From Flavobacteriales bacterium (GTDB taxonomy: Bacteria > Bacteroidota > Bacteroidia > NS11-12g > UBA955), in contig CANMCY010000001.1 of NCBI GenBank assembly GCA_947496375.1, positions 70,756 to 134,755 of the forward strand: a stretch of 64,000 nt of DNA, given 5' to 3'. The notes beneath the pieces are model-generated. The model did not search any database, had not been told where the DNA came from, and saw only the letters and a program-made list of their open reading frames with translations. The number at the start of each line of letters is the position of its first letter. Positions within the stretch are counted from its first letter, which is position 1. The position numbers and the translations under genes are program-made. Below, piece by piece: positions 15,705-55,005 of this stretch.

Positions 15705-16388
15705 TTATTTTTCTGTCTGGGGTTTGCGGATTTCTTCAAGCTCTTTGGGGTGGACCGAATTTTCAAGCCGATGTTGTCCAATTCGGGTGCGGCATAGTGC
15801 AGAAAGGTGCCCGCCGCTGCCCAGTGCCAACGCAAAATCATGGGCCAGCGAGCGAATATAAGTTCCCTTGCTGCAAACTACCCGAAAATGGATTTCGGGC
15901 AGGTCTATTCCGGTAATCTCAAATGATTTAATGGTGATTTCCCTGGGCTTCAACTCTGCGGAAACACCTTCTCTTGCCAGCTTGTAAGCCCTTTTTCCAT
16001 CTACTTTAATGGCAGAAAAAATAGGAGGTAATTGTGAAATTAAGCCGGTAAATAATGTGGTTTTTTCCCGTATCTGAGTAGCTGTAATATGGTCAAACGG
16101 GAAGAACTCGTTGGGCTCTGTTTCTAAATCATAACTGGGAGTGGTATTTCCCAGGGTTATAGTACCGGTATACTCTTTCTCCTGATTCTGTAGCTCTTCA
16201 ATCCTGCGGGTGCTGCCTTCGGTGCAAACCAGCAACAGGCCGGTTGCCAGCGGATCCAGTGTACCCGCATGTCCTACTCGCTTGGCTTTGGTAATCCACT
16301 TGATTTTTTTTACAACCTGAAAAGAGGTCCAGCCGTAGGGCTTATTGATGAGTAGAATTTCGCCCGGAGGCCTCGGTTCACTGCTCAC
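15705..16388 (-). CDS. truB: tRNA pseudouridine(55) synthase
   Basis: GHAGTLDPLATGLLLVC catalytic motif. Confidence 0.9.
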   Translation of the reverse strand: MSSEPRPPGEILLINKPYGWTSFQVVKKIKWITKAKRVGHAGTLDPLATGLLLVCTEGSTRRIEELQNQEKEYTGTITLGNTTPSYDLETEPNEFFPFDHITATQIREKTTLFTGLISQLPPIFSAIKVDGKRAYKLAREGVSAELKPREITIKSFEITGIDLPEIHFRVVCSKGTYIRSLAHDFALALGSGGHLSALCRTRIGQHRLENSVHPKELEEIRKPQTEK

Positions 16389-35325: not shown

Positions 35326-35493
35326 GTAATTACTGCAAAAAAACGAAATTTTCAGGACTATTCATGTAACCAGTGTAACACTATATGGTAACAAACAGAT
35401 GTGAATTATTCCATTTTCGTTGCATTGCTTATGCACTTTTGTGTGAAAAAGAATAGAAGCATTGTTTTTTCGTTCTGTATTTTTGAACAACCC

Positions 35494-36948
35494 ATGCATC
35501 TCCTTCGTTGTACCCTTTTGCTCACGCTGCATTTGTTTTTGTGCTTTAATATCAAGGCACAAAAGATGAATACGGTCCAATACATAGAGGAGTTCAAGTT
35601 TGCCGCCATGCAGGAAATGAAGATTTATGGGATACCGGCTTCGGTTACCCTGGCCCAGGGGATTTTGGAAAGTGCAAGTGGAAATAGCAAGCTGGCCAAA
35701 GACTGTAACAACCATTTTGGTATTAAATGTCGTAAAAACTGGACAGGCAATTATTGCCTGGCCGATGATGATGCACCGGATGAATGCTTCAGGGGTTATG
35801 GCAGCGCCATGGAAAGTTATCGAGACCACAGTCTTTTTCTGAAAGGAGCATCTCGGTATGATTTTTTATTTAGTTTGCCCGCCACAGACTACAAGGCATG
35901 GGCCCATGGGCTCAGGCAGGCAGGTTATGCCACCAATCCGGCTTATGGAAACATTATCATCAGTGTGGTGGACAGGTATCGCCTTTCCATGTATGACAGC
36001 ATGACCATTTTGGGTGATGATTACGATACTCCGGACACAGCTGCAAGCCGGCTGATACAAAAACATGGTCTACCTGCGGTAATTGCATTGAAGAGTCAAA
36101 AACCGGAAGATATAGCCAAGCTATATGATTTGGGCTCATGGCAAATTTATAAATATAACGACCTAAAGAATGGCGAGGATCTGAAACCGGGCGAAATAAT
36201 ATACCTGAAGCCCAAAAAGCGCAGGGCTACTGCAGATTTTCATGCTGTGAGGGAAGGAGAAACCCTTCGAGATATCAGTCAGCAACATGCGGTCAAACTC
36301 AAAAAACTGGAAAAATTCAATCAGATTGTGGCATCAAAACCCCTGAAGCCGGGTGAGATTATTTACCTGCGAGAAAAAAGATTGAATGACTCCCTCAAGA
36401 AAGAAGCAATAAAACGGCAGTCAGAAGTGCAAGAGGAAAGCGATTCCGTATTAAGAATAGCGAAGGAAGGCGATACGTGGCAGAGTCTGGGAAGTCAAAA
36501 TGGAAAGCGGCCTGAAGAACTGAAAAAAAATAATGCAGACATAGAACGTCCGGTGCCGGGGCAGGTTGTGCTGATTTCATCGGAAAAAATCACCGATAAA
36601 ACGGTTGCTGATATGCCGTCAACTGCCGGCAAGATCATGTTTCATTCGGTAATTAAGGGTGAGACCGTATACAGTATTTCCCGGCTTTATAAAATTTCGC
36701 CGGATTCATTGATAAAATGGAACAAAATTAAAGATCATCAAATTAGGGGGGGGCAGGAGTTACAGGTTCAAAGCCCCGATAGCAATGTCCAAGGCAAACA
36801 AAATCAAACACATACGGTATCTGCTGGTGAAACCCTGTTTCAGATTTCGCGTCGGTATGGAGTTTCTGTGGCTGATTTACAGCAGCAAAATGGGCTGAAA
36901 GGCACTGAAATTAAGGTTGGACAACGGATTGTGATTGTGCGGTATTGA
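35494..36948 (+). CDS. Peptidoglycan hydrolase: N-terminal glucosaminidase (FlgJ-like) domain plus four LysM repeats
   Basis: GIPASVTLAQGILESASG is a glucosaminidase motif; four LysM repeats. Start chosen at the internal ATG (MHLLRCTLLL signal peptide) rather than the ORF-track 35401. Confidence 0.7.
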   Translation: MHLLRCTLLLTLHLFLCFNIKAQKMNTVQYIEEFKFAAMQEMKIYGIPASVTLAQGILESASGNSKLAKDCNNHFGIKCRKNWTGNYCLADDDAPDECFRGYGSAMESYRDHSLFLKGASRYDFLFSLPATDYKAWAHGLRQAGYATNPAYGNIIISVVDRYRLSMYDSMTILGDDYDTPDTAASRLIQKHGLPAVIALKSQKPEDIAKLYDLGSWQIYKYNDLKNGEDLKPGEIIYLKPKKRRATADFHAVREGETLRDISQQHAVKLKKLEKFNQIVASKPLKPGEIIYLREKRLNDSLKKEAIKRQSEVQEESDSVLRIAKEGDTWQSLGSQNGKRPEELKKNNADIERPVPGQVVLISSEKITDKTVADMPSTAGKIMFHSVIKGETVYSISRLYKISPDSLIKWNKIKDHQIRGGQELQVQSPDSNVQGKQNQTHTVSAGETLFQISRRYGVSVADLQQQNGLKGTEIKVGQRIVIVRY

Positions 36949-37079
36949 TGGGTTCTTAACAGAAAAGTCATATTTCTGTCATAAGCGGAAACTTTTTTTT
37001 AAAATTTATGCAACCTTTGGGGGGTATAGCGTCATTTTTTTAGCTATAATTGCAACAACTACAAACAAATTTTCATACT

Positions 37080-40000
37080 ATGAAGCTAACAATTACCAAA
37101 ATCACCAGAGCGCTAGGCCTTATGGGCATTGGCTTTCTGGCCATGATGCCGGGTGGTTCAAAGGGGCAAATCTGCACCGCAACGAACTCCTGGGGTTGTG
37201 GACACAACTACGGTGGTAACATCGTGGAAATCAAAATCAGCGACAATGGCGGAACGCTTGCAAGCTATTCAGGCTTGGCTTGTTCAACCACCGCAGCAAC
37301 TAACAACGTGCTGGTTAACTCCGGAAATCCTATCGACATTACTGCCGGCCAGGATCTTACCCTGGAAATCACCGGTTCAGTAGATGCTTACGGTTGGGGT
37401 TACCTTACCCGTGTAGGCATCTGGCTTGATTACGATCGCAACAACAGCTTTTCTGCTGCAGAGTGTATCGCCAGTCCTTCCAGCGGTCCTTGGGCCTCTA
37501 TCGGAACCACAGCGGTGAAATCTACGCTGAAGTTGCCTTGCTGGTCTGCTACTGGTGCCAGCACCATGCGTTTCCGTGGTTTCTACTACTACTCTACTGT
37601 AAACACCAGCATGGGTTGCGGTTCACAGAATACCTATGGAAACATTATTGATGTTGCTGTAAACTTAAAAGTGGGTGCTCCTCCTGTGGCCAATTTCATT
37701 GTTCCTACAGGTCCTAACTACGAGAACACTGTGGTTAAGTTTAACGCTGCTAACCCTAACTCAGCTTACACCTACACCTGGACTTATTCAGGTCCTAATG
37801 TAACCCCTGTTTCTACAACCGGAACCGTAGGCCGTGCTATCTGGACCCCCCCCTCGCCACCTGCCACATTCGACGTGAATATGCTGGTGAGCTATTGCGG
37901 TATTAAAGACTCAATTTCAAAATCAGTTACCATTGTTAGTCCTATCAATGTTCCAACGGCTGATTTTATTGCTAAAGCGAATTCCGTGGAAATCTACTAT
38001 GATGCGGAAATGCTGGATCTTTCTACCAACGGTGCATACAAATGGAGCTGGGAAGCAACTTCTCCATCGGGCTCTCTGTATACCAGCACCACTCAAAATG
38101 CTAAATTCTTCATGGATGAAATAGGTAAGTGGGATTTCTGTCTGACTGCTGAAAACAGCAAAGGCGCTTCTACTAAGACCTGCAAAACTCAGTATGTTGA
38201 ATGTACTCCTCCTTCAGAATTTTATATTGGTATCACCACCCTGGGTGAAAACAAAAAAGGTACCCTGTATGATCATGCCGGTCCAACCGCCAACTACAGC
38301 TCAAACCGTAAAACCAGTATCGATTATTTTAAAATTCTCCCTTGCGGTGCCAAAGAAATTCGTTTGAAGTTCAAACAGATTCGTTTTGCTGATGCCAACG
38401 ACCGTCTCCGTATCTACGATGCAGGTCAGGCAGACGCAGGCAAAGAACTGACACCTGCTGCAGGTATCACCAGCGCTAACCAGGCTACTTACCGTAGTTC
38501 AACCTTCACTGCCAAGAGCGGTGCTATGTATATCACTTTCGAATCTAACGCATCAGGTCAGGATTCAGGTTTCATCGCTACATGGGATTCAGATCTCGCT
38601 CCTCCCGTTAAGCCAAATCCATCTTGGTCTACCGTGTACAACCCTGCCGCTATCGGCACTCAGGTTGAATTCAAGAATACTTCTTCCAATGTACAGGGTG
38701 CACCTGCTTGGGAATGGAGCATCGACGGAAATCCTGAAGCTGTTTCAGAAAGCTACACCCGTGTATTCCCCGCAGACGGTACCTACAACGTATGTCTTTC
38801 AGCCACTACCTGTGATGGTGCTGACACTTTCTGCAAAACCATCGATATCGTAACCCCTACTAAGCCAGGTTCATTGGACTTCACTGCCAGCAACGTTCGT
38901 CCTGATGCCGGTAAGACAGTTGACTTTACCATTACTTCTGACTATGCTACCAATTTTGAGTGGAACATTTTCCCAACCAGCTACACTGTAGTTTCAGGTT
39001 CATTGGTAGGTACCAGCAAGAAATTGACTCTTCGTTTCGATCAGGGTGGTTGCTATACCTTTACCCTCAAGGGCTGGAACGCTGCTGAAAACCCTGCAGG
39101 TTCTACCGAGAAAAAAGTGATCAAGAACAAATACGTTTGTGCATTGAACTACTGCATTCCTCTGGTTGATCTTTTAAGTTCTGATATCGGAATCAACAAG
39201 GTTACTTTGACCAAAGGTTCTACTACACTCATCAAAAACGAAACAACCAGCGGTGAAAAAGCATACTCTGATTTCTCAACAACTCAGAAAGCTACCCTCA
39301 CCTTCGGTGCAACTTACACCCTGGATGTAGCTCGTCTGACCAACAGTAACAGTCTTAACTATAAGGCATGGATCGACTTTAACGTTGATGGTGACTTCAA
39401 CGATGCCGGTGAAGAAATCATGAGCACCGGTATGATTAGCGGTTTGGATGCTACTACTACCTTCACAGTTCCTAACAAGTCTGCCAGCTTCGAAGGCAAC
39501 ACACGTCTGCGTGTAGCCAGCAGCTATGGTAACTTTACCAATACCCCCTGCGGTGTAAATACTGTAGGTGAGTATGAAGACTATGGCATTACCCTTGCTA
39601 ATGATGGTGCTGCACCTGTAATTACCCTGATTGGTAAAGATACTCTTTATGTTGAGCGTACCGGTACTTCAAACGGTTGCTGGGCTGAAGTTGCTACTAC
39701 TACTTACACTGCCAATGACCCAACTGAAGGTGACATGACTTCTAAAGTTAATGTTAACTCTGATCTGGATTGTACCATCCCCGGTATCTACAGCATTGAA
39801 TTTACCCTTTCTGATGCTTCAGGCAACAATGCTGTAACTAAGCGTCGTACAGTATACGTAGTACTTGACAGAACTGCTCCTACACTTACCTTGAACGGAA
39901 ATGCAGTTGAGAAAGTAGAACAGTGCGGTACCTACAGCGAGCCCGGTGCAATTGCAACTGACGCAGTTGATGGTAACCTTACTACTGCTGTAATTATCAG

Positions 40001-41150
40001 CGGTTCCGTAAATACCTCAAAAGTTGGTGACTATGTAATGACTTACACCGTAAGTGACGCTCAGGGTAACACTGCTACTAAGACCCGCACAGTTCAGGTA
40101 CGTGATACCAAGAAGCCAGGTATCTTTAGCGTAGGTAACCGTATCGTTAACAACACCATTGTTAAGGTTCAAATCAACAGCGTGTTTGTAGATAATGTCT
40201 ATGCTCAGGATGAGTGTAATGGTGCTATCGATGTAGTTAAGACTGCCGGCTTTAACGGCCCTGTTAATACTGCCATTCGTGCTACTTACCCCATCGTATA
40301 CACTGCTGTAGATCCTAATGGAAACACTGCCGATGAAGATGGTTTCGTAATTAACTATCAGGTGGATGATTACATTGCACCCGAAGTTTCTCTGAACACT
40401 GAGTCTGTAATTTTCCACGACGTAAATACTCCTTATGTATCTCGTAATGTTACCGTAAGTGATAACTTCTACCCGCTGAACAAAGTGAGTGTTGTTAAAA
40501 CCGGAACTGTAGATCCATATACACTGGGTACCTACACTGAAAGCTACACTGCTACCGATGAAAGCGGAAACACCACTACTGCAGTTCGTACAGTAAACGT
40601 GGTAGATCGCATTGCTCCTCAGATTCTTGCTCCTGCCATGAACGTGTGCGTAGGTACTCCTTTCTGGGCCATGAGCGGTCTGGTAATCAGCGACAACTAC
40701 TACTCACCTTCTACCCTGTCTCCTCTGGTATCAGTGTTGAACCACAACGTCAACATTTACGAAGCTGGTGTTTACTACATCAACTATACTCTTTCTGATC
40801 CTAGCGGCAACAAGGCCATGATGGTAACACGTCCTGTGTTCGTAAACTATCCTCCTAACTGTCAGAATACTTACCTGAGCACAGCTAATGTTAGTCTGGA
40901 AGATGCAGTAAGTGTGTTCCCTAACCCTACCAGCGGTAAGGTAACCCTCAGCTACATGCTTCAGAACAGCAAGCCCGTGAGCGTGGAAGTGTTCAACGTG
41001 TCAGGCAGCAAAGTTGCTTCGTTCAATAACCTGAAATCAGGTCTCGGTCACACCGAAATCAACCTGGCTCAGTATGGTAACGGAGTTTACATGATCCGCC
41101 TGAGCAACGACGGACAGACCACAACCAAGCGTGTTGTAGTTAGAAACTAA
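37080..41150 (+). CDS. Giant T9SS cargo protein, paralog 1: signal peptide, Cys-rich NSWGC module, PKD-like modules, CUB-like domain, GEVED-type module (GEYEDYGI), DUF5011-like Ig repeats, Por_Secre_tail CTD
   Basis: Start taken at ATG 37080 (MKLTITKITRALGLMGIGFLAMMPGG) rather than the TTG at 37050. CUB signature RFADANDRLRIYDAG; DUF5011 signature VEQCGTYSEPGAIATDAVDGNLT; CTD FPNPTSGKVTLSY...VYMIRL. Confidence 0.75.
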   Translation: MKLTITKITRALGLMGIGFLAMMPGGSKGQICTATNSWGCGHNYGGNIVEIKISDNGGTLASYSGLACSTTAATNNVLVNSGNPIDITAGQDLTLEITGSVDAYGWGYLTRVGIWLDYDRNNSFSAAECIASPSSGPWASIGTTAVKSTLKLPCWSATGASTMRFRGFYYYSTVNTSMGCGSQNTYGNIIDVAVNLKVGAPPVANFIVPTGPNYENTVVKFNAANPNSAYTYTWTYSGPNVTPVSTTGTVGRAIWTPPSPPATFDVNMLVSYCGIKDSISKSVTIVSPINVPTADFIAKANSVEIYYDAEMLDLSTNGAYKWSWEATSPSGSLYTSTTQNAKFFMDEIGKWDFCLTAENSKGASTKTCKTQYVECTPPSEFYIGITTLGENKKGTLYDHAGPTANYSSNRKTSIDYFKILPCGAKEIRLKFKQIRFADANDRLRIYDAGQADAGKELTPAAGITSANQATYRSSTFTAKSGAMYITFESNASGQDSGFIATWDSDLAPPVKPNPSWSTVYNPAAIGTQVEFKNTSSNVQGAPAWEWSIDGNPEAVSESYTRVFPADGTYNVCLSATTCDGADTFCKTIDIVTPTKPGSLDFTASNVRPDAGKTVDFTITSDYATNFEWNIFPTSYTVVSGSLVGTSKKLTLRFDQGGCYTFTLKGWNAAENPAGSTEKKVIKNKYVCALNYCIPLVDLLSSDIGINKVTLTKGSTTLIKNETTSGEKAYSDFSTTQKATLTFGATYTLDVARLTNSNSLNYKAWIDFNVDGDFNDAGEEIMSTGMISGLDATTTFTVPNKSASFEGNTRLRVASSYGNFTNTPCGVNTVGEYEDYGITLANDGAAPVITLIGKDTLYVERTGTSNGCWAEVATTTYTANDPTEGDMTSKVNVNSDLDCTIPGIYSIEFTLSDASGNNAVTKRRTVYVVLDRTAPTLTLNGNAVEKVEQCGTYSEPGAIATDAVDGNLTTAVIISGSVNTSKVGDYVMTYTVSDAQGNTATKTRTVQVRDTKKPGIFSVGNRIVNNTIVKVQINSVFVDNVYAQDECNGAIDVVKTAGFNGPVNTAIRATYPIVYTAVDPNGNTADEDGFVINYQVDDYIAPEVSLNTESVIFHDVNTPYVSRNVTVSDNFYPLNKVSVVKTGTVDPYTLGTYTESYTATDESGNTTTAVRTVNVVDRIAPQILAPAMNVCVGTPFWAMSGLVISDNYYSPSTLSPLVSVLNHNVNIYEAGVYYINYTLSDPSGNKAMMVTRPVFVNYPPNCQNTYLSTANVSLEDAVSVFPNPTSGKVTLSYMLQNSKPVSVEVFNVSGSKVASFNNLKSGLGHTEINLAQYGNGVYMIRLSNDGQTTTKRVVVRN

Positions 41151-41205
41151 TTAAGCGTTAGCTTATAAAATAAAAAGCCCGGCCTAGTGCCGGGCTTTTT
41201 ATTTT
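40920..41205 (+). repeat. Copy A of a 286-nt near-identical direct repeat (CTD-coding 3' end plus terminator), shared with 45323..45608
   Basis: Only three mismatches noticed (40928 T vs C, a T vs C in TTCAATAAC/TTCAACAAC, a T vs C in GTAGTTAGA/GTAGTCAGA). Confidence 0.85.
41172..41205 (+). terminator. Rho-independent terminator after paralog 1
   Basis: Stem GCCCGGC/GCCGGGC with loop CTAGT, then TTTTTATTTT. Confidence 0.85.
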
Positions 41206-41272
41206 GATAATGTAAGATTAAGTTTTTCATTACATGGTGTATTTATTCTTGTGGCACACAAAACTTTAATGT

Positions 41273-44200
41273 ATGAAAAACAAAAAATTACTTTCATTGC
41301 TCCTGGCGATAATAGCTTTGGGCATCAGTTTCACCGAACTTAAGGCGCAATGCTCTGCCAACAACTCCTGGGGTTGTAACAGTTGGTATGGTGGCTGGGT
41401 TCGCAACATCGGAATCAAGGATGCTGCCGGAGGGACACTTGCCAGCTACACAGGTTTAGGATGTCAATCTTCCAATTCCACCATTAATTCAGGCAGTGCA
41501 ATTGATTTGGTTGCAGGCCAGCAGATCACCATTGAGTTGAACACTGAGTGTTGCCATAACTGGAGCACCGGTGTAGGTATCTGGTTGGATCAGGACAGAA
41601 ATGGAGATTTTACTACCTCAGAATGTATTTTAGATCCTCAGTCATCTTTCTATTCCATTTCCAACAATGCTTCATCGCCTTCGCGAGTAACGTTAACCCT
41701 GCCTTGTTTTACCGGTTCAGGTAAAAGTTTTTTGCGTTTCCGTGCCCAGTCCCATTACAATGGCTACAGACTTTACAATTATCAAGGATGCGGTACCGCA
41801 GATTTCTACGGTAGCACCTATGATGTAGAAGTTAACCTAAAGCGCCTGCCCGATCCTGTGGCTGACTTTGGCGTGCCTACCGGACCCAATTACGAAAAGA
41901 CTACCATTAAATTTCCGGCAACTACCCAGGAAAAGGCCAATTCTTATAGCTGGACCTTTCAGGGTCCGAATGAAACCCCTGTGGTTAATAATGCTCCAAC
42001 AGGCAGAGCCAAATGGTCTCCTGCCTCACCACCCTCTACTCATGATGTAACGCTGAATGTGTCTTATTGTGGTAAAACCAGCACCAAAACCAAAAAGGTA
42101 ACTATAGTTAGACCTACAGCAGCTCCGGTTGCTGATTTTATTGCTAAAAGCAACAGTGTAGAAATTTACAATAACGCCGAGCTGATTGATTTGTCTACCA
42201 ATGGTCCTTACATCTGGGCATGGGAAGCTACTTCACCCACAGGAAATAAATATACATCTTCTCAGGAAGAACCTAAGTTTTATCTGGACGAGGAAGGTAA
42301 ATGGTCTTTCTGCCTTACCTCAGAAAATGGTCTGGGTAAATCTACTAAAGTTTGTAAAACACAATATGTTACCTGCACACCTCCTTCAGAATTCTATATG
42401 GGTCCACAGACTGAAGGACGCAGTGTTAAAGGACTTTTATATGACCATAACGGTCCATCCAGCAACTATGGTAATAATCGCAGAACCAGCATCGATTACT
42501 TTTTGATCAATCCCTGCGATGCCAAAGAAATTCGTCTTAAATTCAAAAGCTTGCGTTTTTGTGATTATCAGGACAGACTTCGTATCTATGACGGTGACCA
42601 AGCCGATCCTGCAAAACTGCTGACCGGCCCAGAGGGTATTAACGGTAATACCTGGTGGAATGACCGCACTAAAACCTATGTGGCCAAATCCGGAAAGATG
42701 TATCTATCTTTTGAAAGCGATAACAATGGCTGTACTGACTCAGGCTGGATTGCCACTTGGGAAACCGATCAGTTTAAGCCGGTTCAAACCATCGCATCTT
42801 ATACCACCAATTACGACACCATCGCAGAAGGTGTAAACCTGGCCATGTTGAACAAAACATTGATAACAGGAACACCAAAATGGTCATGGAGAGTAAATGG
42901 TTCTGAAGAATCCATCTCAAAAGATTTTACCCGTGCATTCAACACGGCTGGTGTTCAGCGTGTTTGTCTGGCTGCCACCAACTGCAGCACTACCGATACC
43001 TTCTGCAAGAATATCCGCGTAGTAACTCCGGTGAGCTCAATGAACAAAATTGACTTCATTACCGACAAAACCCGCAGCGTGCCCGGCGAGAATGTAACGT
43101 TAACCGCCGAGACCAACTACGCAAATAATCTTACCTGGACTATCACGCCCAATACCTATACGTTGGTATCAGGCAGTCTTACGGGTAATTCATCTCAACT
43201 ATTGGTTAGGTTCACTGCCGGTGGTTGTTACACAGTAGAACTGAAGGGGTACAACACTGCCTTAGGTTCTGGTACCACCCGCACCGTTACCAAGAAAGAC
43301 ATTATTTGTGCTATTGACTATTGCACCCCTGTGGTAGATTTGACCAATAGTGATGTGGGAATCAACATGGTTCAGCTATCTTCAAAAGGCAACAACCTGA
43401 TAAACAGAATCAGCAACAGCGGTGTGTCATACACCAATTACGCAGCAACAGACAATGCCACCCTATATTATGGCTCTACTTACAAAGTTAAGGTGGGTAG
43501 AAATACCAACCTGAATCCAATCAACTACAAGGTATGGATTGACTACAACTTTGACGGTGATTTCAATGACAGTGGAGAAACTGTGATGAACAGCGGACGC
43601 ATCAATGGTGTGATTGACAGTGCCTCATTCAAAGTCCCCATGCACACAAATGCGTACCTGGGAAATACCCGCATGCGTGTTGGTGCAAGCTATGGCGCTA
43701 TGTCTAACACACCCTGCGGACTGAACGTGGTAGGTGAGTTTGAAGATTATAGCGTGACATTGACACGGGATAATTCTCAGCCGGTAATCACGCTTACAGG
43801 TTTGGATACGATGTACATAGAGAAAACAGTAGGCGCTACTGCTTGCTGGTCTGAAATCAAGAAAACCACCTACATGGGCGATGATGCCGATCAGGGTGAC
43901 TTGACAGACAGCGTTAAAGTGACCGGTACTTACGATTGCAGCACACCCGGTACTTACAAGCTTACTTTCAATTTGACAGACGCTTCCGGCAATAAGGCCA
44001 TGACCAAAAACCGCGTTCTGATTGTAGAAAACGACCGTACTGCCCCGACCATTGCCCTGCGTGGTAACTCAGTAGAAATGGTAGAACAGTGCGGAATCTT
44101 CTATGATTCAACTGCTACAGCTTATGATATCACCGATGGAAATCTGACCGATTCAGTGAAAGTTTCTGGCAGCGTAAATACCAAAAATATCGGTGATTAT

Positions 44201-45553
44201 GTATTGACTTATACCGTAAAAGATAAAGTAGGTTTGAGTGCTACTGTTACCCGTCTGGTGAAAGTGCGCGATACCAAAGCACCCGGTATTTACCTCGGCA
44301 GCACCCGTATCGTTGATAGCCAGATTGTGAATGTGCAGATTGGCAGCTTCTTCAATGATTACGTGTATGCTTCTGATGAATGTAACGGCTTCACTGCAAT
44401 CCAGAAAATGCCCGGTGCCAAAGGATATGTAAATCCTATGGTGAAAGGTACTTACCCGACTCAGTATTTTGCTACGGATGTAAACGGAAACGTATCTACA
44501 GAGAATGGTTATACTGTTCTTTATAAGGTGGATGACTACATTGCACCTGAGATTAGTCTGAATACGGAAGACACCATAATGCATGATGTAAAAACGCCTT
44601 ACAGTTCTGTAGCGGTTACCATCACTGAGAACTATACAGCGCAGAGCAAGTTGATTACCAGCAAGGTATCCAATGTAAATGCCAATGTGGTAGGTGTGTA
44701 TACTGAAGTGTATACAGCTGAAGACGAAAGCGGCAACAAAGCAACCAAAACCCGCGTGGTAAAGGTGGTGGACCGTTTCGCTCCCGAATTGTTGTTGAAT
44801 TCAGATGCTTACATGATTCATGATGTTAACACAAACTATGTTTCACGTAACGTATCGGTGAGTGACAATTACAGCCCTGTAAGCAAGATTACCGTAGTGA
44901 AAACAGGTACTGTAAATGCTACCGTTCTTGGCACTTACACTGAGACATACACTGCTACCGATGAAAACGGCAACAGCACAACCAAAGTTCGCACTGTGGA
45001 AGTGGTTGACCGTGTTTCTCCCCAGATTCTGGCACCTGCAGTGAATGTATGTATCGGTACTCCTTTCTGGGCAATGAGTGGCCTTACCATCACAGATAAC
45101 TATTATTCTGCTTCTGTATTAGCTCCTTTGGTGACGATCCTGGGTCAAAACATCAATATCTGGGAAGCCGGTGTGTACCATGTTGATTACAGCCTGACTG
45201 ACCCGAGCGGAAACAAGGCCGTGCTGGTAACCCGCCCAGTGTATGTGAATTATCCTCCAAATTGCCAGAACACATTCCTGAACACACAAGACATGGATCT
45301 GGACAAAGCGGTGAGCATTTCGCCTAACCCCACCAGCGGTAAGGTAACCCTCAGCTACATGCTTCAGAACAGCAAGCCCGTGAGCGTGGAAGTGTTCAAC
45401 GTGTCAGGCAGCAAAGTTGCTTCGTTCAACAACCTGAAATCAGGTCTCGGTCACACCGAAATCAACCTGGCTCAGTATGGTAACGGAGTTTACATGATCC
45501 GCCTGAGCAACGACGGACAGACCACAACCAAGCGTGTTGTAGTCAGAAACTAA
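41273..45553 (+). CDS. Giant T9SS cargo protein, paralog 2 (1426 aa; same architecture, one extra DUF5011-like repeat)
   Basis: QCSANNSWGC N-terminal module; CUB motif FCDYQDRLRIYDGD; GEFEDYSV; CTD identical to paralog 1. Confidence 0.8.
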   Translation: MKNKKLLSLLLAIIALGISFTELKAQCSANNSWGCNSWYGGWVRNIGIKDAAGGTLASYTGLGCQSSNSTINSGSAIDLVAGQQITIELNTECCHNWSTGVGIWLDQDRNGDFTTSECILDPQSSFYSISNNASSPSRVTLTLPCFTGSGKSFLRFRAQSHYNGYRLYNYQGCGTADFYGSTYDVEVNLKRLPDPVADFGVPTGPNYEKTTIKFPATTQEKANSYSWTFQGPNETPVVNNAPTGRAKWSPASPPSTHDVTLNVSYCGKTSTKTKKVTIVRPTAAPVADFIAKSNSVEIYNNAELIDLSTNGPYIWAWEATSPTGNKYTSSQEEPKFYLDEEGKWSFCLTSENGLGKSTKVCKTQYVTCTPPSEFYMGPQTEGRSVKGLLYDHNGPSSNYGNNRRTSIDYFLINPCDAKEIRLKFKSLRFCDYQDRLRIYDGDQADPAKLLTGPEGINGNTWWNDRTKTYVAKSGKMYLSFESDNNGCTDSGWIATWETDQFKPVQTIASYTTNYDTIAEGVNLAMLNKTLITGTPKWSWRVNGSEESISKDFTRAFNTAGVQRVCLAATNCSTTDTFCKNIRVVTPVSSMNKIDFITDKTRSVPGENVTLTAETNYANNLTWTITPNTYTLVSGSLTGNSSQLLVRFTAGGCYTVELKGYNTALGSGTTRTVTKKDIICAIDYCTPVVDLTNSDVGINMVQLSSKGNNLINRISNSGVSYTNYAATDNATLYYGSTYKVKVGRNTNLNPINYKVWIDYNFDGDFNDSGETVMNSGRINGVIDSASFKVPMHTNAYLGNTRMRVGASYGAMSNTPCGLNVVGEFEDYSVTLTRDNSQPVITLTGLDTMYIEKTVGATACWSEIKKTTYMGDDADQGDLTDSVKVTGTYDCSTPGTYKLTFNLTDASGNKAMTKNRVLIVENDRTAPTIALRGNSVEMVEQCGIFYDSTATAYDITDGNLTDSVKVSGSVNTKNIGDYVLTYTVKDKVGLSATVTRLVKVRDTKAPGIYLGSTRIVDSQIVNVQIGSFFNDYVYASDECNGFTAIQKMPGAKGYVNPMVKGTYPTQYFATDVNGNVSTENGYTVLYKVDDYIAPEISLNTEDTIMHDVKTPYSSVAVTITENYTAQSKLITSKVSNVNANVVGVYTEVYTAEDESGNKATKTRVVKVVDRFAPELLLNSDAYMIHDVNTNYVSRNVSVSDNYSPVSKITVVKTGTVNATVLGTYTETYTATDENGNSTTKVRTVEVVDRVSPQILAPAVNVCIGTPFWAMSGLTITDNYYSASVLAPLVTILGQNINIWEAGVYHVDYSLTDPSGNKAVLVTRPVYVNYPPNCQNTFLNTQDMDLDKAVSISPNPTSGKVTLSYMLQNSKPVSVEVFNVSGSKVASFNNLKSGLGHTEINLAQYGNGVYMIRLSNDGQTTTKRVVVRN

Positions 45554-45608
45554 TTAAGCGTTAGCTTATAAAATAAAAAGCCCGGCCTAGTGCCGGGCTT
45601 TTTATTTT
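45323..45608 (+). repeat. Copy B of the 286-nt near-identical direct repeat
   Basis: See copy A. Confidence 0.85.
45575..45608 (+). terminator. Rho-independent terminator after paralog 2 (same hairpin as after paralog 1)
   Basis: GCCCGGC-CTAGT-GCCGGGC, then a T-tract. Confidence 0.85.
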
Positions 45609-45675
45609 ATACACATTTAATGTTACATTTATTTTTTTTATAAATATTGTCATTATTATTGAAAATATTTCAATT

Positions 45676-48600
45676 ATGAAAATAAAAATACTACTTAAGT
45701 TTATTGCTTGGGCGGCATTTATCGGTTTTAATTTACCGGATGCCCATGCTCAGTGTTCTGCCAGCAACTCCTGGGGTTGTGGCGGATGGTACGGGGGTGA
45801 CTTGCAGTCCATTGTGGTGAAAGACGCTGCCGGTGGAACACTGGCCAGCTACACCGGTTTAGGATGTGCCTCATCCAATAGAACTTTAAATACAGGTAAA
45901 CCAATAGATTTGGTTGCAGGCCAGCAAATTACCATTGAAGTTGCAAATAGTGGTGGAAACTGGTCTACCGGCGTAGGTATCTGGCTGGATCAAAATTTTG
46001 ATGGTTCTTTCTCAACCTCAGAGTGTATTTTAAGTCCTACCAGTACTTTTTACACTACCTCCAGTAATCCATCTGCACCTTCCAGGGTAACCATTACCCT
46101 GCCTTGCTGGTCCGGAAGTGGCAAGAGCTGGCTTCGTCTTAGAAGCTTGTCTCACTACACCTATGGCTTAGGCACAGGATCAGGATGTGGTACTGTAACA
46201 GGGTATGGATCTATCAATGATATTGAGGTAAATATGAAGCGTTTACCCAATCCAACTTCAGATTTTAACGTGCCCCGTGGTCCAAACTATGAAAGGACTA
46301 CCATTAAGTTTCCTGCCAGCAGTCAAGATCCTGCTTACACCTATAGCTGGACATTTGCCGGACCTAATGTTACGGTAGTAAATAACGCTTCTTCAATAGG
46401 CCAAGCGAAATGGTCTCCGGTATCACCTCCGAGCACGCATGATGTAACACTGAATGTATCGTATTGTGGTGTATCGGCCACCAAAACCAAACAGATAACG
46501 ATAGAGCAGCCAAAGGCAGCCCCTGTGGCAGATTTCATCGCCAAGAAGAACAGTGTAGAGATCTATAACAATGCAGAACTGGTGGATTTGTCTACCAATG
46601 GGCCTTACAGCTGGGTATGGGAAGCAGTTTCCCCTGCCGGAAATCTGTATACATCAGGGCAGCAGAACCCATTGTTTTTCCTCGATGAGGTGGGTAAATG
46701 GAATTTCTGTCTGACCTCACAAAACGGACTTGGCGTATCTACTAAGGTTTGTAAAAACCAGTATGTGGAATGTACGCCCCCTACAGAATATTACATGGGA
46801 CCGCAGACAGTAGGTGAAAGTTCAATAGGTATGCTGTATGACCATGCAGGTCCGTCACAGAACTATACCAATAACAGACGAAACAGCATTGACTATTTCT
46901 TGATAAAGCCCTGCGATGCGAAAGAGATTAGATTGAAATTTAAGAGTCTGCGTTTTTGCGATAACGGCGATATCTTGAGAATATACGATTCTGAGTTTGC
47001 CGATCCTGCCAAACAGTTAACCCCTTCAACGGGCATCAACGGCAGCAATTGGAATTTCTATAGAACACAGACATTCAAGGCCACCAGCGGCAGGATGTAC
47101 CTGACTTTTGAAAGTAATTCATCATGTGTAGATTCGGGCTTCATTGCGCTATGGGAATCAGACCGTGCTAAACCAATTCCTACACTTAGTTCATTTACCA
47201 ATAAGTACGATACAATTGCAGAGGGAGTAAATTTGACTTTTATTAACAAAACCATTATCACGGGTACGCCCAACTGGTCATGGCGCGTCAATAATACCGA
47301 GGAGTCAACTTCCAAAGAGTTTTCGCGTACGTTTACTGCATCGGGAGCTCAGAAAGTATGTCTGGTTGCCGGCAATTGCAGCAGTTCAGATACATTCTGT
47401 AAAACCATTCGTGTGGTACCGCCTTCATCTTCCATGGCGAAGCTGGATTTTGTTTCAGACAAGGTACGTGTAATTCCCAATGAAACGGTTACCTTAACGG
47501 CGGAGACCAACTTTGCCGATAACCTGGAATGGGTAATCACTCCGAACTCTTATACTTTGGTATCAGGCAATTTGATAGGCAACAGTTCACAGATACAGTT
47601 CAAGCCCACATCGGGTGGATGTTTTACTGTGGAGTTGAAAGGATATAACAGTTTGCTTGGATTTGGTACGGCAAAAACCGTAATCAAAAAAGAGATAGTG
47701 TGTGCAGTTGATTATTGCACGCCTGTGGTAGATCTGACCAATTCAGATGTTGGAATAAACATTGTAGAACTGCTTGAACAGGATACCTTCCGGATCAATA
47801 AGACGAGCGGAAGCGGTGTGTCATACAGCAACTTTATGAGCACGGACAAAGCATCCTTGAACTTTGGCGCGAGCTACAAGGTTAAAGTGGGTCGTTTTAC
47901 CAACATCAACCCGATCAATTACAAGGTATGGATAGATTTTAATATTGATGGAGACTTCGATGATGCGGGAGAAACGGTATTAACCTCGGGTAAAATCAGT
48001 GGATTTACGGACAGTGCTACGTTCCGGGTTCCGCCTTTTGCCCGCGCATTTGAAGGTCTGACCCGCATGCGTGTGGGTGCCAGCTATGGATCGCTGGATA
48101 ACTATCCTTGCGGAGTGAATGTTGTGGGTGAATTTGAGGATTATGGAATTACACTGCTTCGGGATAACTCCAAACCAGAAATTACATTGCTGGGTGGAGA
48201 TACCATCTACGTAGAAAAGATCGGTACAGCAGGTGGCTGCTGGGCTGAAGCTAAGAAAACGACTTACATGGGCGAAGACGGCCATGAGGGCGATTTGACG
48301 GACAGTGTAAAGATTAGCGGAACATTCAATTGCAGTGTGGCCGGAACCTATAAACTGGAGTTCAACCTCACCGATGCATCGGGCAACCAGGCAGATAAAA
48401 AGACGCGCTTACTGATTGTAGAAAATGACCGTACCCGTCCGTCCATCACGCTTCGTGGAAAGGCGCTGGAAAATATTGAGCAGTGCGGAACATTCTATGA
48501 TTCATTGGCCACTGCATTCGATAAGACAGACGGAAACCTAACCGATTCAATCAAAGTGATTGGCAGTGTGAATACCAATGTGATTGGGGATTATGTATTG

Positions 48601-49698
48601 ACCTATACGGTAAAAGATAAAGCCGGATTGACAGCGTCAGTTAAAAGAACAATCAAGGTTCGCGATACCAAAGGTCCCGGTATATTTATCGGAGGCAGCC
48701 GTATACTCGATAGTCAGGTGGTACAGGTGCAGATAGGAACCATCTTCACCGATTATGTATATGCCGAAGACGATTGCAACGGGTATACAGAGATTCGTAA
48801 AATGCCGGGAGCTAAGGGGACTGTGAACGCTACCGCGAAGGGATCGTACCCAACACGCTATTTTGCTACCGATATTAATGGAAATGTATCACCGGAGAAT
48901 GGATACACGCTGATATACAAGGTTGATGACTTTGTAGCCCCTGAGATAGAGCTGAATACACAGGATACAATCTATCATGATGTGAAGACCGATTACGTTT
49001 CACGCAGCGTAACCATCCGCGAGAATTACTCATCACCTCTGTTGGTGAAGACTACCAAGAGCAGCAATGTGAATGAGAATGTTTTGGGTGTGTATCAGGA
49101 GGTGTTCACGGCAGAGGATGAGAGCGGCAATAAGGCCATCAGAACCCGTGTGGTGAAGGTAGTGGACCGCACAGCCCCGGATTTGCTGGGCGGCAACATC
49201 ACAACCTGCGTGGGTGACCCCTTCTGGGCGATGAGCGGCCTTCACGTTATCGATAACTACTACGACTCAGCCGCGCTGATGCCCAGGGTGAAAGTGGTAA
49301 GCCACAACGTGAATATCTGGGTGAAGGGAATCTACTTCATTAATTATTCACTGACAGACCCAAGCGGTAACGCTTCCAAAATGATTAGCCGTGACGTGCA
49401 CGTGTTGCCTCAGGGAGAATGCTCCAGCACTTATTCAGGAGTTAGTAATTTAACCGCTGACGGAATCCGGGTATACCCCAATCCTACTGCTGGTTCGGTA
49501 CAGATAGATGCCGGTAAACTGCAAAGCAGCATAACTGCTGTGGAAGTGTGGGACAACAGTGGTCGCATGCTGCACAGTGTGAAATCTACAGGAAATATAA
49601 CCACCTTGCAGCTGAATGCATACGCAGCGGGTGTATATACCCTGAAAATTAAGACTGCAGACCGCACTTGGGTTAAACCGATCATATTGAATAAATAA
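45676..49698 (+). CDS. Giant T9SS cargo protein, paralog 3 (1340 aa; same architecture, distinct CTD)
   Basis: QCSASNSWGC; CUB motif FCDNGDILRIYDSE; GEFEDYGI; CTD RVYPNPTAGSVQID...VYTLKI. Confidence 0.8.
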   Translation: MKIKILLKFIAWAAFIGFNLPDAHAQCSASNSWGCGGWYGGDLQSIVVKDAAGGTLASYTGLGCASSNRTLNTGKPIDLVAGQQITIEVANSGGNWSTGVGIWLDQNFDGSFSTSECILSPTSTFYTTSSNPSAPSRVTITLPCWSGSGKSWLRLRSLSHYTYGLGTGSGCGTVTGYGSINDIEVNMKRLPNPTSDFNVPRGPNYERTTIKFPASSQDPAYTYSWTFAGPNVTVVNNASSIGQAKWSPVSPPSTHDVTLNVSYCGVSATKTKQITIEQPKAAPVADFIAKKNSVEIYNNAELVDLSTNGPYSWVWEAVSPAGNLYTSGQQNPLFFLDEVGKWNFCLTSQNGLGVSTKVCKNQYVECTPPTEYYMGPQTVGESSIGMLYDHAGPSQNYTNNRRNSIDYFLIKPCDAKEIRLKFKSLRFCDNGDILRIYDSEFADPAKQLTPSTGINGSNWNFYRTQTFKATSGRMYLTFESNSSCVDSGFIALWESDRAKPIPTLSSFTNKYDTIAEGVNLTFINKTIITGTPNWSWRVNNTEESTSKEFSRTFTASGAQKVCLVAGNCSSSDTFCKTIRVVPPSSSMAKLDFVSDKVRVIPNETVTLTAETNFADNLEWVITPNSYTLVSGNLIGNSSQIQFKPTSGGCFTVELKGYNSLLGFGTAKTVIKKEIVCAVDYCTPVVDLTNSDVGINIVELLEQDTFRINKTSGSGVSYSNFMSTDKASLNFGASYKVKVGRFTNINPINYKVWIDFNIDGDFDDAGETVLTSGKISGFTDSATFRVPPFARAFEGLTRMRVGASYGSLDNYPCGVNVVGEFEDYGITLLRDNSKPEITLLGGDTIYVEKIGTAGGCWAEAKKTTYMGEDGHEGDLTDSVKISGTFNCSVAGTYKLEFNLTDASGNQADKKTRLLIVENDRTRPSITLRGKALENIEQCGTFYDSLATAFDKTDGNLTDSIKVIGSVNTNVIGDYVLTYTVKDKAGLTASVKRTIKVRDTKGPGIFIGGSRILDSQVVQVQIGTIFTDYVYAEDDCNGYTEIRKMPGAKGTVNATAKGSYPTRYFATDINGNVSPENGYTLIYKVDDFVAPEIELNTQDTIYHDVKTDYVSRSVTIRENYSSPLLVKTTKSSNVNENVLGVYQEVFTAEDESGNKAIRTRVVKVVDRTAPDLLGGNITTCVGDPFWAMSGLHVIDNYYDSAALMPRVKVVSHNVNIWVKGIYFINYSLTDPSGNASKMISRDVHVLPQGECSSTYSGVSNLTADGIRVYPNPTAGSVQIDAGKLQSSITAVEVWDNSGRMLHSVKSTGNITTLQLNAYAAGVYTLKIKTADRTWVKPIILNK

Positions 49699-49829: not shown

Positions 49830-51095
49830 TTAACTGCGTATAATAAAATGGGAGGTGCTACCGGTGTTTTGCTCCAGAATGACCTCTTTTTGGCCTATAA
49901 CGGCATTTTTAGAGCCCTCAGTTGCATTGTAAATGGTAATAAGTTCCACCAATGCTGTAATTCGGGTTTCAAGACCCAGTTTTTCCATTTCAGCAATCAG
50001 GTGTTGCATTTTATTCTCATTGCTGTCTGCCACAAAACTGAAACTGATGGCAGAGTTTTGAATAATATTACATCTAACCTTGAAATTGGCTAGCAGTCGA
50101 AAAATATGTTCCAGGTTTTGTTCCACAATAAAGGTAAAATCACGGGTTTTTAATTCAACCAGAACCTGATCGTTTTTGAAAATATAGCATGGAACTGAAA
50201 GCGCTTCGCTGTGGTTGCTCACACGAGTACCTTCATGCAGGGGGTGAATAAATGACTTAACCAGCAGCGGAATGTTTTTAGCCATTAGGGGCTGTATGGT
50301 TTTGGGATGGATAACCGAAGCACCGTAATAGGCCAGTTCAATGGCATCAGAATAGCTTAGGTGTGGAATGAGTATGGCGTTTTCTATTTTTTTAGGGTCT
50401 GCATTCATTACCCCGGCCACGTCCTTCCAAATGGTTACCGATTCAGCATTGAGGCAATAGGCGAATATGGCAGCCGAATAGTCGCTGCCCTCACGCCCAA
50501 GCGTGGTAGTCTCATTAACTGGACCTCTGCCGATAAATCCCTGCGTAATTACCGGATGCCTTTCCGCAAGCGGCTTTAGTTTTTTGGCGATTATTTTTTC
50601 GGTTTCATCCCATTGTATGCGCGCATCCCTGTAACGGTCGTCGGTAAGTATAAAATTACGGCTGTCAATCCACTGGTTTTTTATACCCATGTTCAGCAAA
50701 TAATGGCTCACAATTTTTGTGCTGATAAGTTCACCAAAAGAAACAATCTGATCGTAAACGAAATCATATTCTTCGGGCTGTACCGGTGTTTCCGCTAGGC
50801 ATTCCAGTTCCAGAAAAAGATTTTCGATATCATTGGTCATGGCAGTGGAATTAGAAGTTTCCAGACGGGTAAGAATGGAATAATGATAATCTTTTAATTC
50901 TTTGATCAGCGTAGCTGTTTCGCCGGTGCTATGAACACATGCATTGACGATTTTCTCTAAATGGTTGGTGCTTTTCCCCATAGCGCTAATAACCACGACC
51001 AGGTTCTCTCCGCTGTGGTCAGTGAGTATATTGGCTACGTTTTTAACACCATCGGCATCTTTAACTGATGCACCGCCAAACTTGAATATTTTCAT
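49830..51095 (-). CDS. lysC: Aspartate kinase
   Basis: MKIFKFGGASV N-terminus, ACT domains at the C-terminus; 421 aa. Confidence 0.85.
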   Translation of the reverse strand: MKIFKFGGASVKDADGVKNVANILTDHSGENLVVVISAMGKSTNHLEKIVNACVHSTGETATLIKELKDYHYSILTRLETSNSTAMTNDIENLFLELECLAETPVQPEEYDFVYDQIVSFGELISTKIVSHYLLNMGIKNQWIDSRNFILTDDRYRDARIQWDETEKIIAKKLKPLAERHPVITQGFIGRGPVNETTTLGREGSDYSAAIFAYCLNAESVTIWKDVAGVMNADPKKIENAILIPHLSYSDAIELAYYGASVIHPKTIQPLMAKNIPLLVKSFIHPLHEGTRVSNHSEALSVPCYIFKNDQVLVELKTRDFTFIVEQNLEHIFRLLANFKVRCNIIQNSAISFSFVADSNENKMQHLIAEMEKLGLETRITALVELITIYNATEGSKNAVIGQKEVILEQNTGSTSHFIIRS

Positions 51096-53973: not shown

Positions 53974-55005
53974 TTATTTCAACAATTCCCACGCGATTTT
54001 TGGGAAGCCCTTCTCGCCTTTATCGTTATAAAAATCAACGAAACGCATTTTGAAGTAGTTCCCCTTGGCATCCAGAATAATGAATATCTTCTTTTGATTA
54101 ACCGTGTATTTATTGGCGGTCAGACTCCATGTTTTCCAGTCGTAACCTATCTCATTGAGATAATTGCTTAATACCAGTGATTTGGCATAGTTCAAATCAA
54201 TCAGATTGAAGTCAATTACATTATTTAGTTCCAGTACCTTTACTTTATTAGGGTTGGTCAATACACCCCTGAGAATGTAGGGCATGGTGGTTCCAAGGGT
54301 TTCTTCCGTAACGGTTTGCTTGTAGGTGGTAATCACCATGTCCCAGTTATCTCTGTTAAATGGTTCGTTATACACTTCTTTTTCAGAGGAGAAGTTGTAG
54401 TACGCATAATTGTATTCGTTTTTAACATTGATAAATACATCATTTTTGGGTACTGTATCCGTTAAAAGGCCCCACTGAAAGTGGTAGGAAGAACCCTCAC
54501 GGCCAAGCAGTCTGAGTTTGATAAATTTTTTGTTTCCAAGAGAATCTGCACCGCGATTAATAATGTAAATCCTGTTCTTAGGTTTTGCTTTACCCATCTG
54601 ATAACTTTCCCAGCAGCCGGAAAATGAGAGAGAGTCGGGGTGTCCGTTAGGGTTGTCAAAAGTCCAGGTGTAGCGGTTGATGTCTATTTGCCGAATGTCT
54701 TTAAAATCAGCGTTTTCAATGTAGGTAGCTGAAAAACCGCTATGCTTACCGCAGTTCAATACAATGCTGTTTTGTTCGCTTAGTGAAAATCCTATATCCC
54801 ACAGGCCAAACGGATTGGATGCGGTCTTCTGCGTGGCAAATTCAAACCATAGCTGATTTTCGTAATTTTCGCCCATGGCAAAGGTGGCAGACTGCGTGCC
54901 AACAGGAACTTCCGGTGCAATGTAGAGAGGTTCGTCCTTCTCGCAGGAAGCCAGGCACATCAATACAATTATGAGACCAATCCAGTATGTATTACTCCCC
55001 CTCAT
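53974..55005 (-). CDS. HmuY-family (heme-binding) lipoprotein, long form
   Basis: Lipobox LASCEK; GLWDIGFSLSEQNSIVLNCG resembles the HmuY NWDMALHRYDVRLNCG core. Confidence 0.5.
   Translation of the reverse strand: MRGSNTYWIGLIIVLMCLASCEKDEPLYIAPEVPVGTQSATFAMGENYENQLWFEFATQKTASNPFGLWDIGFSLSEQNSIVLNCGKHSGFSATYIENADFKDIRQIDINRYTWTFDNPNGHPDSLSFSGCWESYQMGKAKPKNRIYIINRGADSLGNKKFIKLRLLGREGSSYHFQWGLLTDTVPKNDVFINVKNEYNYAYYNFSSEKEVYNEPFNRDNWDMVITTYKQTVTEETLGTTMPYILRGVLTNPNKVKVLELNNVIDFNLIDLNYAKSLVLSNYLNEIGYDWKTWSLTANKYTVNQKKIFIILDAKGNYFKMRFVDFYNDKGEKGFPKIAWELLK

Follow-up and report, generated by a model that had tools for sequence, protein, structure and literature searches.

Three tandem paralogous type IX secretion cargo genes with one module order in a Flavobacteriales contig

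The GEVED domain was defined as a partner or stalk domain of CshA, a fibrillar adhesin of streptococci (PMC10952558). CshA and CshB combine GEVED in a distal non-repeat region with a stalk of repeated beta-domains and a C-terminal surface anchor of the LPXTG type. Another related design is found in the type A cargo of the type IX secretion system (T9SS) of Bacteroidota, i.e., proteins with a signal peptide, an all-beta modular body and a C-terminal domain (CTD) matching TIGR04183/PF18962 at the extreme C-terminus; GEVED, PKD and the T9SS CTD are a common combination in the giant proteins of this phylum. Here we describe an array of three such genes, designated P1, P2 and P3, situated in a row in a 64,000-nucleotide (nt) stretch of Flavobacteriales DNA (assembly GCA_947496375.1, contig CANMCY010000001.1, positions 70,756 to 134,755; called the window below). 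The array occupies about 20% of the window.

37080..41150, forward strand: P1, 1356 amino acids (aa), with single-copy orthologs at the same position in many relatives
41273..45553, forward strand: P2, 1426 aa, a chimeric copy with one extra immunoglobulin (Ig)-like module
45676..49698, forward strand: P3, 1340 aa, with a divergent tail and a CTD of its own type

We read the three genes as functional paralogs of a conserved Bacteroidota surface-protein family coding for surface-anchored binding proteins, probably adhesins (probability about 0.7); our confidence in any specific ligand is far lower. The likeness to CshA and CshB extends to the distal GEVED, the stalk and the C-terminal anchor. 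On the other hand, the anchor in the array proteins is a T9SS CTD instead of LPXTG, the number of stalk repeats is fixed, and there are two GEVED-type modules, of which the N-terminal one lacks the GEVED motif. The ligand-binding domain NR2 of CshA had no Pfam match at E<=0.01 in the whole proteins or at E<=10 in segments. Compared to known T9SS cargo, the order of 13-14 modules has neither a family-level model in NCBIfam nor a literature record; searches on GEVED, DUF5011, CUB with T9SS and freshwater Flavobacteriales adhesins returned no paper on this family. The first-pass annotation of the window, made from the sequence, had likewise named no characterised family with CUB, GEVED and DUF5011 on a T9SS cargo.

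Array layout and module order

The three genes are complete open reading frames (ORFs) on the forward strand (37050/37080-41150, 41273-45553 and 45676-49698), each with its own start, signal peptide, CTD and terminator. For P1 we took the ATG at 37080 as the conserved start, because the orthologs all begin with MKLT[IF]TK; the ORF itself extends upstream to a TTG at 37050. The lengths of 1426 and 1340 aa assigned to P2 and P3 in the first-pass annotation were correct, while the 1366 aa given for P1 had been counted from the upstream TTG. Similarly, the two intergenic spacers are equal as had been claimed, but each is 122 nt long, the value of 123 being the difference between stop and start coordinates; the first 50 nt are identical between the spacers. 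The proteins are colinear over the whole length, with identities of 55% (P1/P2), 49% (P1/P3) and 64% (P2/P3), and the base composition of the array is the same as that of the rest of the window. It was thus confirmed that the array consists of three real paralogs on the same strand, all coding for T9SS type A cargo and sharing a conserved order of modules.

This order is as follows: a Sec signal peptide, a GEVED-type sandwich, two PKD-like modules, a CUB-fold domain, two more PKD-like modules, a GEVED domain, five to six Ig-like modules and a T9SS type A CTD. Beta-sandwich modules account for every stretch of all three proteins, and the Pfam/NCBIfam scans of whole proteins and segments found no catalytic domain in P1, P2 or P3. 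The positions of the modules in P2, with equivalents in P1 and P3, are listed below.

41348..41857, forward: P2 N-terminal module (aa 26-195), a divergent GEVED-type beta-sandwich with a Q-C-x-x-NSWGC start
37170-37691 in P1 and 45751-46257 in P3, forward: equivalents of the N-terminal module
41858..42397, forward: P2 PKD-like modules 1-2 (aa 196-375), sub-threshold for PKD_4/Big_7
42398..42787, forward: P2 CUB-fold domain (aa 376-505)
38232-38621 in P1 and 46795-47181 in P3, forward: equivalents of the CUB-fold domain
42788..43327, forward: P2 PKD-like modules 3-4 (aa 506-685)
43328..43768, forward: P2 central GEVED domain (aa 686-832), with the motif GEFEDY kept
43769..45292, forward: P2 Bact_surface_Ig-like run (aa 833-1340), six modules by spacing and five Pfam stretches
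45293..45550, forward: P2 T9SS type A CTD, above cut-off for PF18962 and TIGR04183
40890-41147 in P1 and 49450-49695 in P3, forward: equivalents of the CTD

Profile searches suggested in the first-pass annotation bore out its DUF5011-type Ig, GEVED and Por_Secre_tail/TIGR04183 assignments, all of which passed the Pfam/NCBIfam cut-offs. PF16403 (Bact_surface_Ig-like, formerly DUF5011) reached 152.7, 166.4 and 139.4 bits in P1, P2 and P3, respectively, with 4, 5 and 4 stretches; both P1 and P3 have one Ig module fewer than P2. GEVED (PF20009) was above the curated cut-off in all three proteins with two stretches in each. The central GEVED module scored 66-82 bits against the cut-off of 24.4 and shows the motif GE[FY]EDY throughout. 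At the C-terminus, TIGR04183 scored 48.4, 46.0 and 46.5 bits (cut-off 23) and PF18962 51.1, 46.9 and 41.5 bits (cut-off 27) for P1, P2 and P3, with each match ending 1-3 residues before the stop.

The PKD-like modules had less clear scores. Flanking the CUB-fold domain are four modules, each about 90 aa long, that are PKD-like at a sub-threshold level only (PKD_4/Big_7). The PF18911/PF00801 scores were 24.4 bits in P1, compared to the cut-off of 27, and 13.6-15.6 bits in segments of P2. PKD_4/PKD matches are on record for most homologs.

A signal peptide, read directly from the sequence, is present in all three proteins as a basic n-region and a hydrophobic core followed by A/G-Q. The residues Q26 and C27 at the predicted cleavage site are near-invariant among 32 homologs. 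Exported proteins of Bacteroidota usually begin with Gln once the signal peptide has been cleaved off.

The N-terminal and CUB-fold domains

The N-terminal module, described in the first-pass annotation as a Cys-rich NSWGC module, proved to be a second, divergent GEVED-type beta-sandwich (30-34 bits against the cut-off of 24.4). In a segment-wise scan, it matched the GEVED profile with 31.7, 29.7 and 33.7 bits in P1, P2 and P3. Its alignment with the central GEVED module, some 150 residues long, shows 21-24% identity; the GEVED motif has been lost (GSTYDV, GNIIDV and GSINDI) and cysteines have been gained. A profile made of the three N-terminal modules produced 341 matches at E<=0.001 among 1.84 billion representative proteins. 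When six more distant matches were scanned, five were large proteins with 4-8 GEVED stretches and five had a T9SS CTD. The relatives found through this module are multi-GEVED/PKD T9SS giants, similar to known T9SS type A cargo.

The predicted fold of the N-terminal module was compared with known structures. The best match was Endo HS-alpha (9x1i); Wzt O-antigen-binding domains were also among the best matches, and folds resembling lytic polysaccharide monooxygenases (LPMO) were found as well. We tentatively assigned the 9x1i match to domain IV because this domain shows the same Wzt similarity. Domain IV of Endo HS-alpha is a unique jelly-roll with similarity to Wzt, for which N-glycan recognition was proposed from docking only (PMC12961652). 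Its sugar binding is itself modelled and not demonstrated. The identity to domain IV is 15%, with no sequence-level match, and domain IV sits on an enzyme in Endo HS-alpha, while the array proteins have none. The link to 9x1i is structural only, because the PDB sequence searches produced no match for either the N-terminal module or a profile of six GEVED modules (whole P2 gave just generic Ig/CTD matches). An LPMO reading of the fold was rejected, since the mature N-terminus is a near-invariant Gln-Cys and not His.

The divergence claimed earlier for the N-terminal region was confirmed across the family, where the N-terminal module has the lowest conservation of all folded domains, with a mean pairwise identity of 36% compared to 47-55% for most others. 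In addition, some lineages (loci L010 and L076) combine a conserved tail with an N-terminal half that is very different. In their genes at the position of the array, the tail is 84-91% identical to that of P1, while the N-terminal module is only 42% identical. This pattern suggests that the N-terminal half was replaced, or is mosaic, between lineages. The tip would then differ between copies and between lineages, possibly by replacement, with each version conserved thereafter. We also observed that the genes flanking these two loci (L010 9926-14035 and L076 9968-14077) are as close to those of the window as the flanking genes of L001, a locus in which the N-terminal module is 88% identical.

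For the domain between the PKD-like pairs, the CUB profile (PF00431) stayed below the Pfam cut-off (17.2-17.3 bits compared to 21.4), with an alignment spanning profile positions 14-109 of 110. The AlphaFold2 model of this module had a mean confidence (pLDDT) of 94.2. All top 48 Foldseek matches of the model in PDB were CUB domains with probability 1.0, and the target TM-score was 0.72-0.80 on single-domain entries. The matches included Kremen, neuropilins, PCPE-1, TSG-6, MASPs and C1r/s. Because a confident model matches only CUB domains in PDB, we assign this module a CUB fold. Consequently, the CUB-like domain named in the first-pass annotation fails as a Pfam assignment and is supported as a fold. 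The homologs P0030 and P0103 carry a precomputed PF00431 match.

The residues D20, D37, D63 and D69 of the module are near-invariant in the family, which is compatible with an acidic triad of the Ca2+-binding kind. The likeness to metazoan CUB domains (neuropilin, Kremen, PCPE-1, TSG-6, MASP/C1r/C1s and cubilin) is one of fold; the array domains differ from them in an identity of only 13-24%, in the sub-cut-off Pfam score and in the bacterial context. A CUB fold placed between two GEVED-type modules in a bacterial protein is a mildly unusual detail.

Origin of P2, selection and genomic slots

The middle gene is a mosaic, in which a P3-type head (nt 41273-44797, aa 1-1175) is followed by a P1-type tail (nt 44798-45553, aa 1176-1426). 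This was judged from segment identities and from neighbor-joining trees, which are distance-based and carry no bootstrap support. In the trees, residues 1-1175 of P2 fall with the P3 clade, the identity to every P3 ortholog being 63-73%. Residues 1176-1340, in turn, fall with the P1 clade (about 70-73% identity), and the P2 CTD nests inside the P1 clade. P2 is also one Ig module longer than P1, P3 and the syntenic relatives compared. Its Ig4 module is 70% identical to Ig4 of P3 and its Ig4b module is 68% identical to Ig4 of P1, compared to only 48% between Ig4 and Ig4b. Fourth modules that match P3 and P1, respectively, better than each other are what crossing-over out of register between genes of the P3 and P1 types (A-B to A-B/A-B) is expected to leave, and we conclude that P2 arose in this way, with its fourth Ig module duplicated. 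Relatives with two genes would represent a plausible precursor of the three-gene array, or a product of deletion.

Besides the mosaic structure, P1 and P2 share a short, nearly identical tract at the 3' end:

40929..41200, forward: copy 1, made up of the 221 nt at the 3' end of P1 and the next 50 nt with the terminator
45332..45603, forward: copy 2, the end of P2 and the terminator, exactly 4403 nt downstream of copy 1

The copies differ by 2 mismatches in 272 nt, while the identity is 60-78% just upstream and about 50% beyond +50. The boundary at -222 is sharp, and the paralogs within the genome are 99.3% identical compared to 94-96% for orthologs. Given that paralogs of one genome are closer than orthologs of two genomes, with a sharp boundary, the tract marks a recent gene conversion, later than the formation of the chimera. 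In locus L005, a relative with three genes, the paralogs share the upstream boundary of the tract but diverge over the 22 nt that follow the stop. The two window copies are identical there, and their tract continues through the terminator. Recombination between the two direct repeats would delete exactly P2.

It had been claimed that the 3' ends of the array are homogenised and that the scaffold evolves in concert. The first claim was true only for P1 and P2 and for the 272-nt tract; the CTD of P3 is only 27-29% identical to theirs. The second was not supported, as paralog identity in the remaining scaffold is 40-70%, with the tail and CTD of P3 being the most divergent. In its copy number of 1-3, chimeric middle gene, sharp-edged tract and assembly breaks, the locus resembles tandem arrays of surface-protein genes shaped by unequal crossing-over and conversion. 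It differs from families in concerted evolution, since conversion is limited to 272 nt and the gene bodies are 49-64% identical, each under purifying selection.

The P3 CTD (49450-49695) is 74% identical to its L005 ortholog, compared to 89-96% for the other domains, with a dN/dS ratio (omega) of 0.12; the P3 CTD evolves faster than the rest of P3. A borrowing of this CTD from another CTD protein of the window was rejected, the identity to any of them being <=29%.

Selection was estimated by the Nei-Gojobori dN/dS, averaged per gene and per domain. Between the window genes and the L005 orthologs, omega was 0.04, 0.05 and 0.04 for P1, P2 and P3, at dS of 0.6-1.1. With gene-wide values this low, all three genes are kept by strong purifying selection. 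Every folded domain had omega in the range from 0.01 to 0.12, including the N-terminal module (0.02, 0.07 and 0.03 in P1, P2 and P3). The diversifying selection that the first-pass annotation had read into the divergent N-termini thus left no domain-level signal, in the N-terminal module (0.02-0.07) or gene-wide (0.04-0.05).

The array has a large number of relatives. P2 itself had no exact match in the contig index, and relatives were traced through homologs. Full-length homologs of about 1340-1390 aa that share the Pfam set form more than 100 clusters, all of them from metagenomes or metagenome-assembled genomes (MAGs) and named only "DUF5011 domain-containing protein" or "PKD repeat protein". 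The GTDB species representatives contained 437 stretches encoding relatives. Many of the record titles or sample names point to lakes and rivers (e.g., Baikal and Erken).

The copy number in the position corresponding to the array (slot 1) varies among relatives from one to three, as a synteny comparison suggested in the first-pass annotation has established. A single copy, always P1-type, is present in L001, L002, L057, L008, L009, L010, L049, L058, L065, L067, L076 and L077; P1 is the ancestral 'core' copy of the slot. Two copies, P1-type and P3-type, are found in L006 and L051, and three copies in L005 (CAYYXG010000011.1), with aa identities of 94%, 95% and 91% to P1, P2 and P3. In a distant lineage (L070 1-10506), this slot is occupied by at least three tandem family genes. 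Two of these are closer to each other than to any other relative, and the L070 array is, therefore, an independent expansion. The P1-like gene of L051 (8341-12457) and the P3-like gene of L053 (1-3982) are each split into two overlapping ORFs, which could be due to a frameshift, pseudogenisation or an assembly error.

A second conserved slot has the genes for LptD, Amidase_3, the family protein and MlaD in this order and was found in 37 loci. In further slots, the family gene stands beside other large PKD-type T9SS cargo genes. In both conserved slots, the family gene is located directly 3' of a peptidoglycan hydrolase gene on the same strand: glucosaminidase with LysM in slot 1 (24 loci) and Amidase_3 in slot 2 (37 loci; for example, L080 9068-9886, forward strand, as well as L081 and L082). 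Three other slots have no hydrolase neighbor. The adjacency in two slots could be a coincidence or a functional link. Copy number varies at slot 2 too, given that L082 (10001-19685) has a second family copy after the MlaD gene. In L083 (5244-24032) and L085 (5519-18115), family genes are situated in runs of several PKD-rich T9SS cargo genes coding for 1300-1500 aa.

Proposed function, rival explanations and neighboring genes

On the reading that we prefer, the proteins would be exported by Sec and cleaved before the near-invariant Gln. The CTD would be recognised by the type IX secretion system and then removed, and the C-terminus would be attached to the outer surface, or else the protein released. 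Because the anchor is C-terminal, the GEVED-type sandwich and then the CUB-fold domain would be the most distal parts. The N-terminal sandwich, and probably also the CUB domain, would bind a ligand at the tip of a stalk of about a dozen domains, and three copies would provide three different tips. A glycan is the best guess for the ligand, on the grounds of the fold matches alone. With respect to what is expected of an adhesin, stalk-type repeats and an anchor are present, and the binding role of the tip is suggested by fold similarity only.

Several points weigh against this reading. The function is deduced from architecture and fold only, and the glycan role of Endo HS-alpha domain IV is itself a proposal linked to the array by a structural similarity at 15% identity. 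Adhesins usually vary in repeat number and evolve fast. The length in this family is near-fixed (about 1340-1390 aa) and dN/dS is very low, which could indicate a more structural role. A type A CTD cargo may, moreover, either stay anchored or go free. As to the timing of the duplication, the P2 head is 63-73% identical to P3 orthologs that are 80-89% identical among themselves; P2 is either old and lost in L006 and L051, or was fast-evolving early after the duplication.

An unlikely alternative to binding proteins is a structural coat or envelope scaffold, i.e., a fixed-length, T9SS-anchored layer linked to cell-wall processing rather than a ligand-specific adhesin. The near-fixed domain count and length over more than 100 clusters, the very low dN/dS, the core syntenic position among housekeeping genes and the location directly 3' of a peptidoglycan hydrolase gene, on the same strand, in two independent conserved slots would all fit such a layer. 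Yet the hydrolase neighbor is missing in other slots (L083, L084 and L085), gaps of 114-326 nt are no sign of tight operons, and the most variable folded domain is the N-terminal module, which differs strongly between paralogs and in some lineages and fits a specificity tip better. Slightly less probable still are released carbohydrate-binding or substrate-capturing proteins that use the CTD for export only and aid polysaccharide acquisition but do not anchor the cell. In Flavobacteria, part of the type A CTD cargo is freed in soluble form, and the N-terminal fold resembles carbohydrate-binding sandwiches (the Wzt carbohydrate-binding domain, LPMO-like folds and Endo HS-alpha domain IV). Against release, neither a glycoside hydrolase nor a SusC/D partner is found beside slot 1, the Ig-like run of about 500 aa adjoining the CTD looks like a spacer from the cell surface, and there is no sequence-level relation to any carbohydrate-binding module family.

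That the array is an artefact, with one repetitive gene split into three by the assembly, or that its copies are decaying pseudogenes, can be regarded as effectively refuted. The window comes from a metagenome-type assembly, and the 272-nt near-identical repeat does break other assemblies: one MAG (JBEDNI01) has the genes on three contigs (L004, L007 and L053), and L003 ends just upstream of P3. However, the paralogs differ at 36-51% of residues, too much for collapsed or duplicated reads, and each is complete from its own start and signal peptide to its own CTD and terminator. Mis-assembly had been named in the first-pass annotation as a finding that would overturn it, and in L005, an independent assembly, all three genes recur in this order and slot at 91-95% aa identity. 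Omega near 0.04 for all three against orthologs implies that all are maintained by selection.

We would regard as a long shot the broader idea that the family is a fixed-architecture surface structure of streamlined freshwater Bacteroidota coupled to peptidoglycan remodelling, with the CUB and double GEVED modules forming an unrecognised bacterial recognition unit. The components and the kind of system, a T9SS cargo of PKD, Ig and GEVED modules encoded by tandem paralogs, are already known, and it is this family that is uncharacterised; the array does not challenge the current understanding of T9SS cargo or of gene-family evolution. The family is present in many abundant uncultured freshwater Bacteroidota, often in several copies and loci, and knowledge of its ligand could help explain attachment to particles, algae or polymers in lakes. 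The locus could also serve as a worked example of family growth, with one, two and three copies in the same slot and a chimeric middle gene, and its short conversion tract explains why short-read assemblies break there.

The array is delimited by the following features:

35401..36948, forward: gene of a peptidoglycan hydrolase with glucosaminidase and LysM, a neighbor in all slot-1 relatives
41166..41206, forward: intrinsic terminator after P1, hairpin and T-run
45568..45610, forward: intrinsic terminator after P2, with a stem-loop identical to that after P1
49716..49755, strand not assigned: terminator between P3 and the convergent aspartate kinase gene
49830..51095, reverse: aspartate kinase gene, a conserved neighbor in relatives

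All three terminators, each noted as a hairpin in the first-pass annotation, have folding energies between -24 and -28 kcal/mol and z-scores between -6.5 and -8. The one after P3 may be bidirectional, since it is flanked by an A-run on one side and a T-run on the other. The Bacteroidota -7 promoter box TAnnTTTG had zero sites in the three upstream spacers, and its window-wide count corresponded to chance; a sigma-70 scan was also at chance level only.

The genes flanking the array code for housekeeping functions, namely DsbD, the glucosaminidase-LysM hydrolase, aspartate kinase, FBPase and RecO. At least two further T9SS CTD proteins are encoded in the window, on the reverse strand (16385-18253 and, judged from its ortholog, 57283-58593), which lends indirect support to the presence of the T9SS machinery in this genome. 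One of these two, of 621 aa, has no other recognisable Pfam domain.

Some MAG records that share the synteny of the window (L006, L012, L020, L023, L038 and others) are titled Sphingomonadales, Rhizobium, Bifidobacterium, Chitinophaga pinensis or Chryseobacterium gleum; these titles are evidently wrong. Further downstream, at 53974-57272 on the reverse strand, an HmuY-like gene adjoins a TonB-dependent receptor gene. This likely haem-uptake pair is conserved downstream of the slot in relatives.

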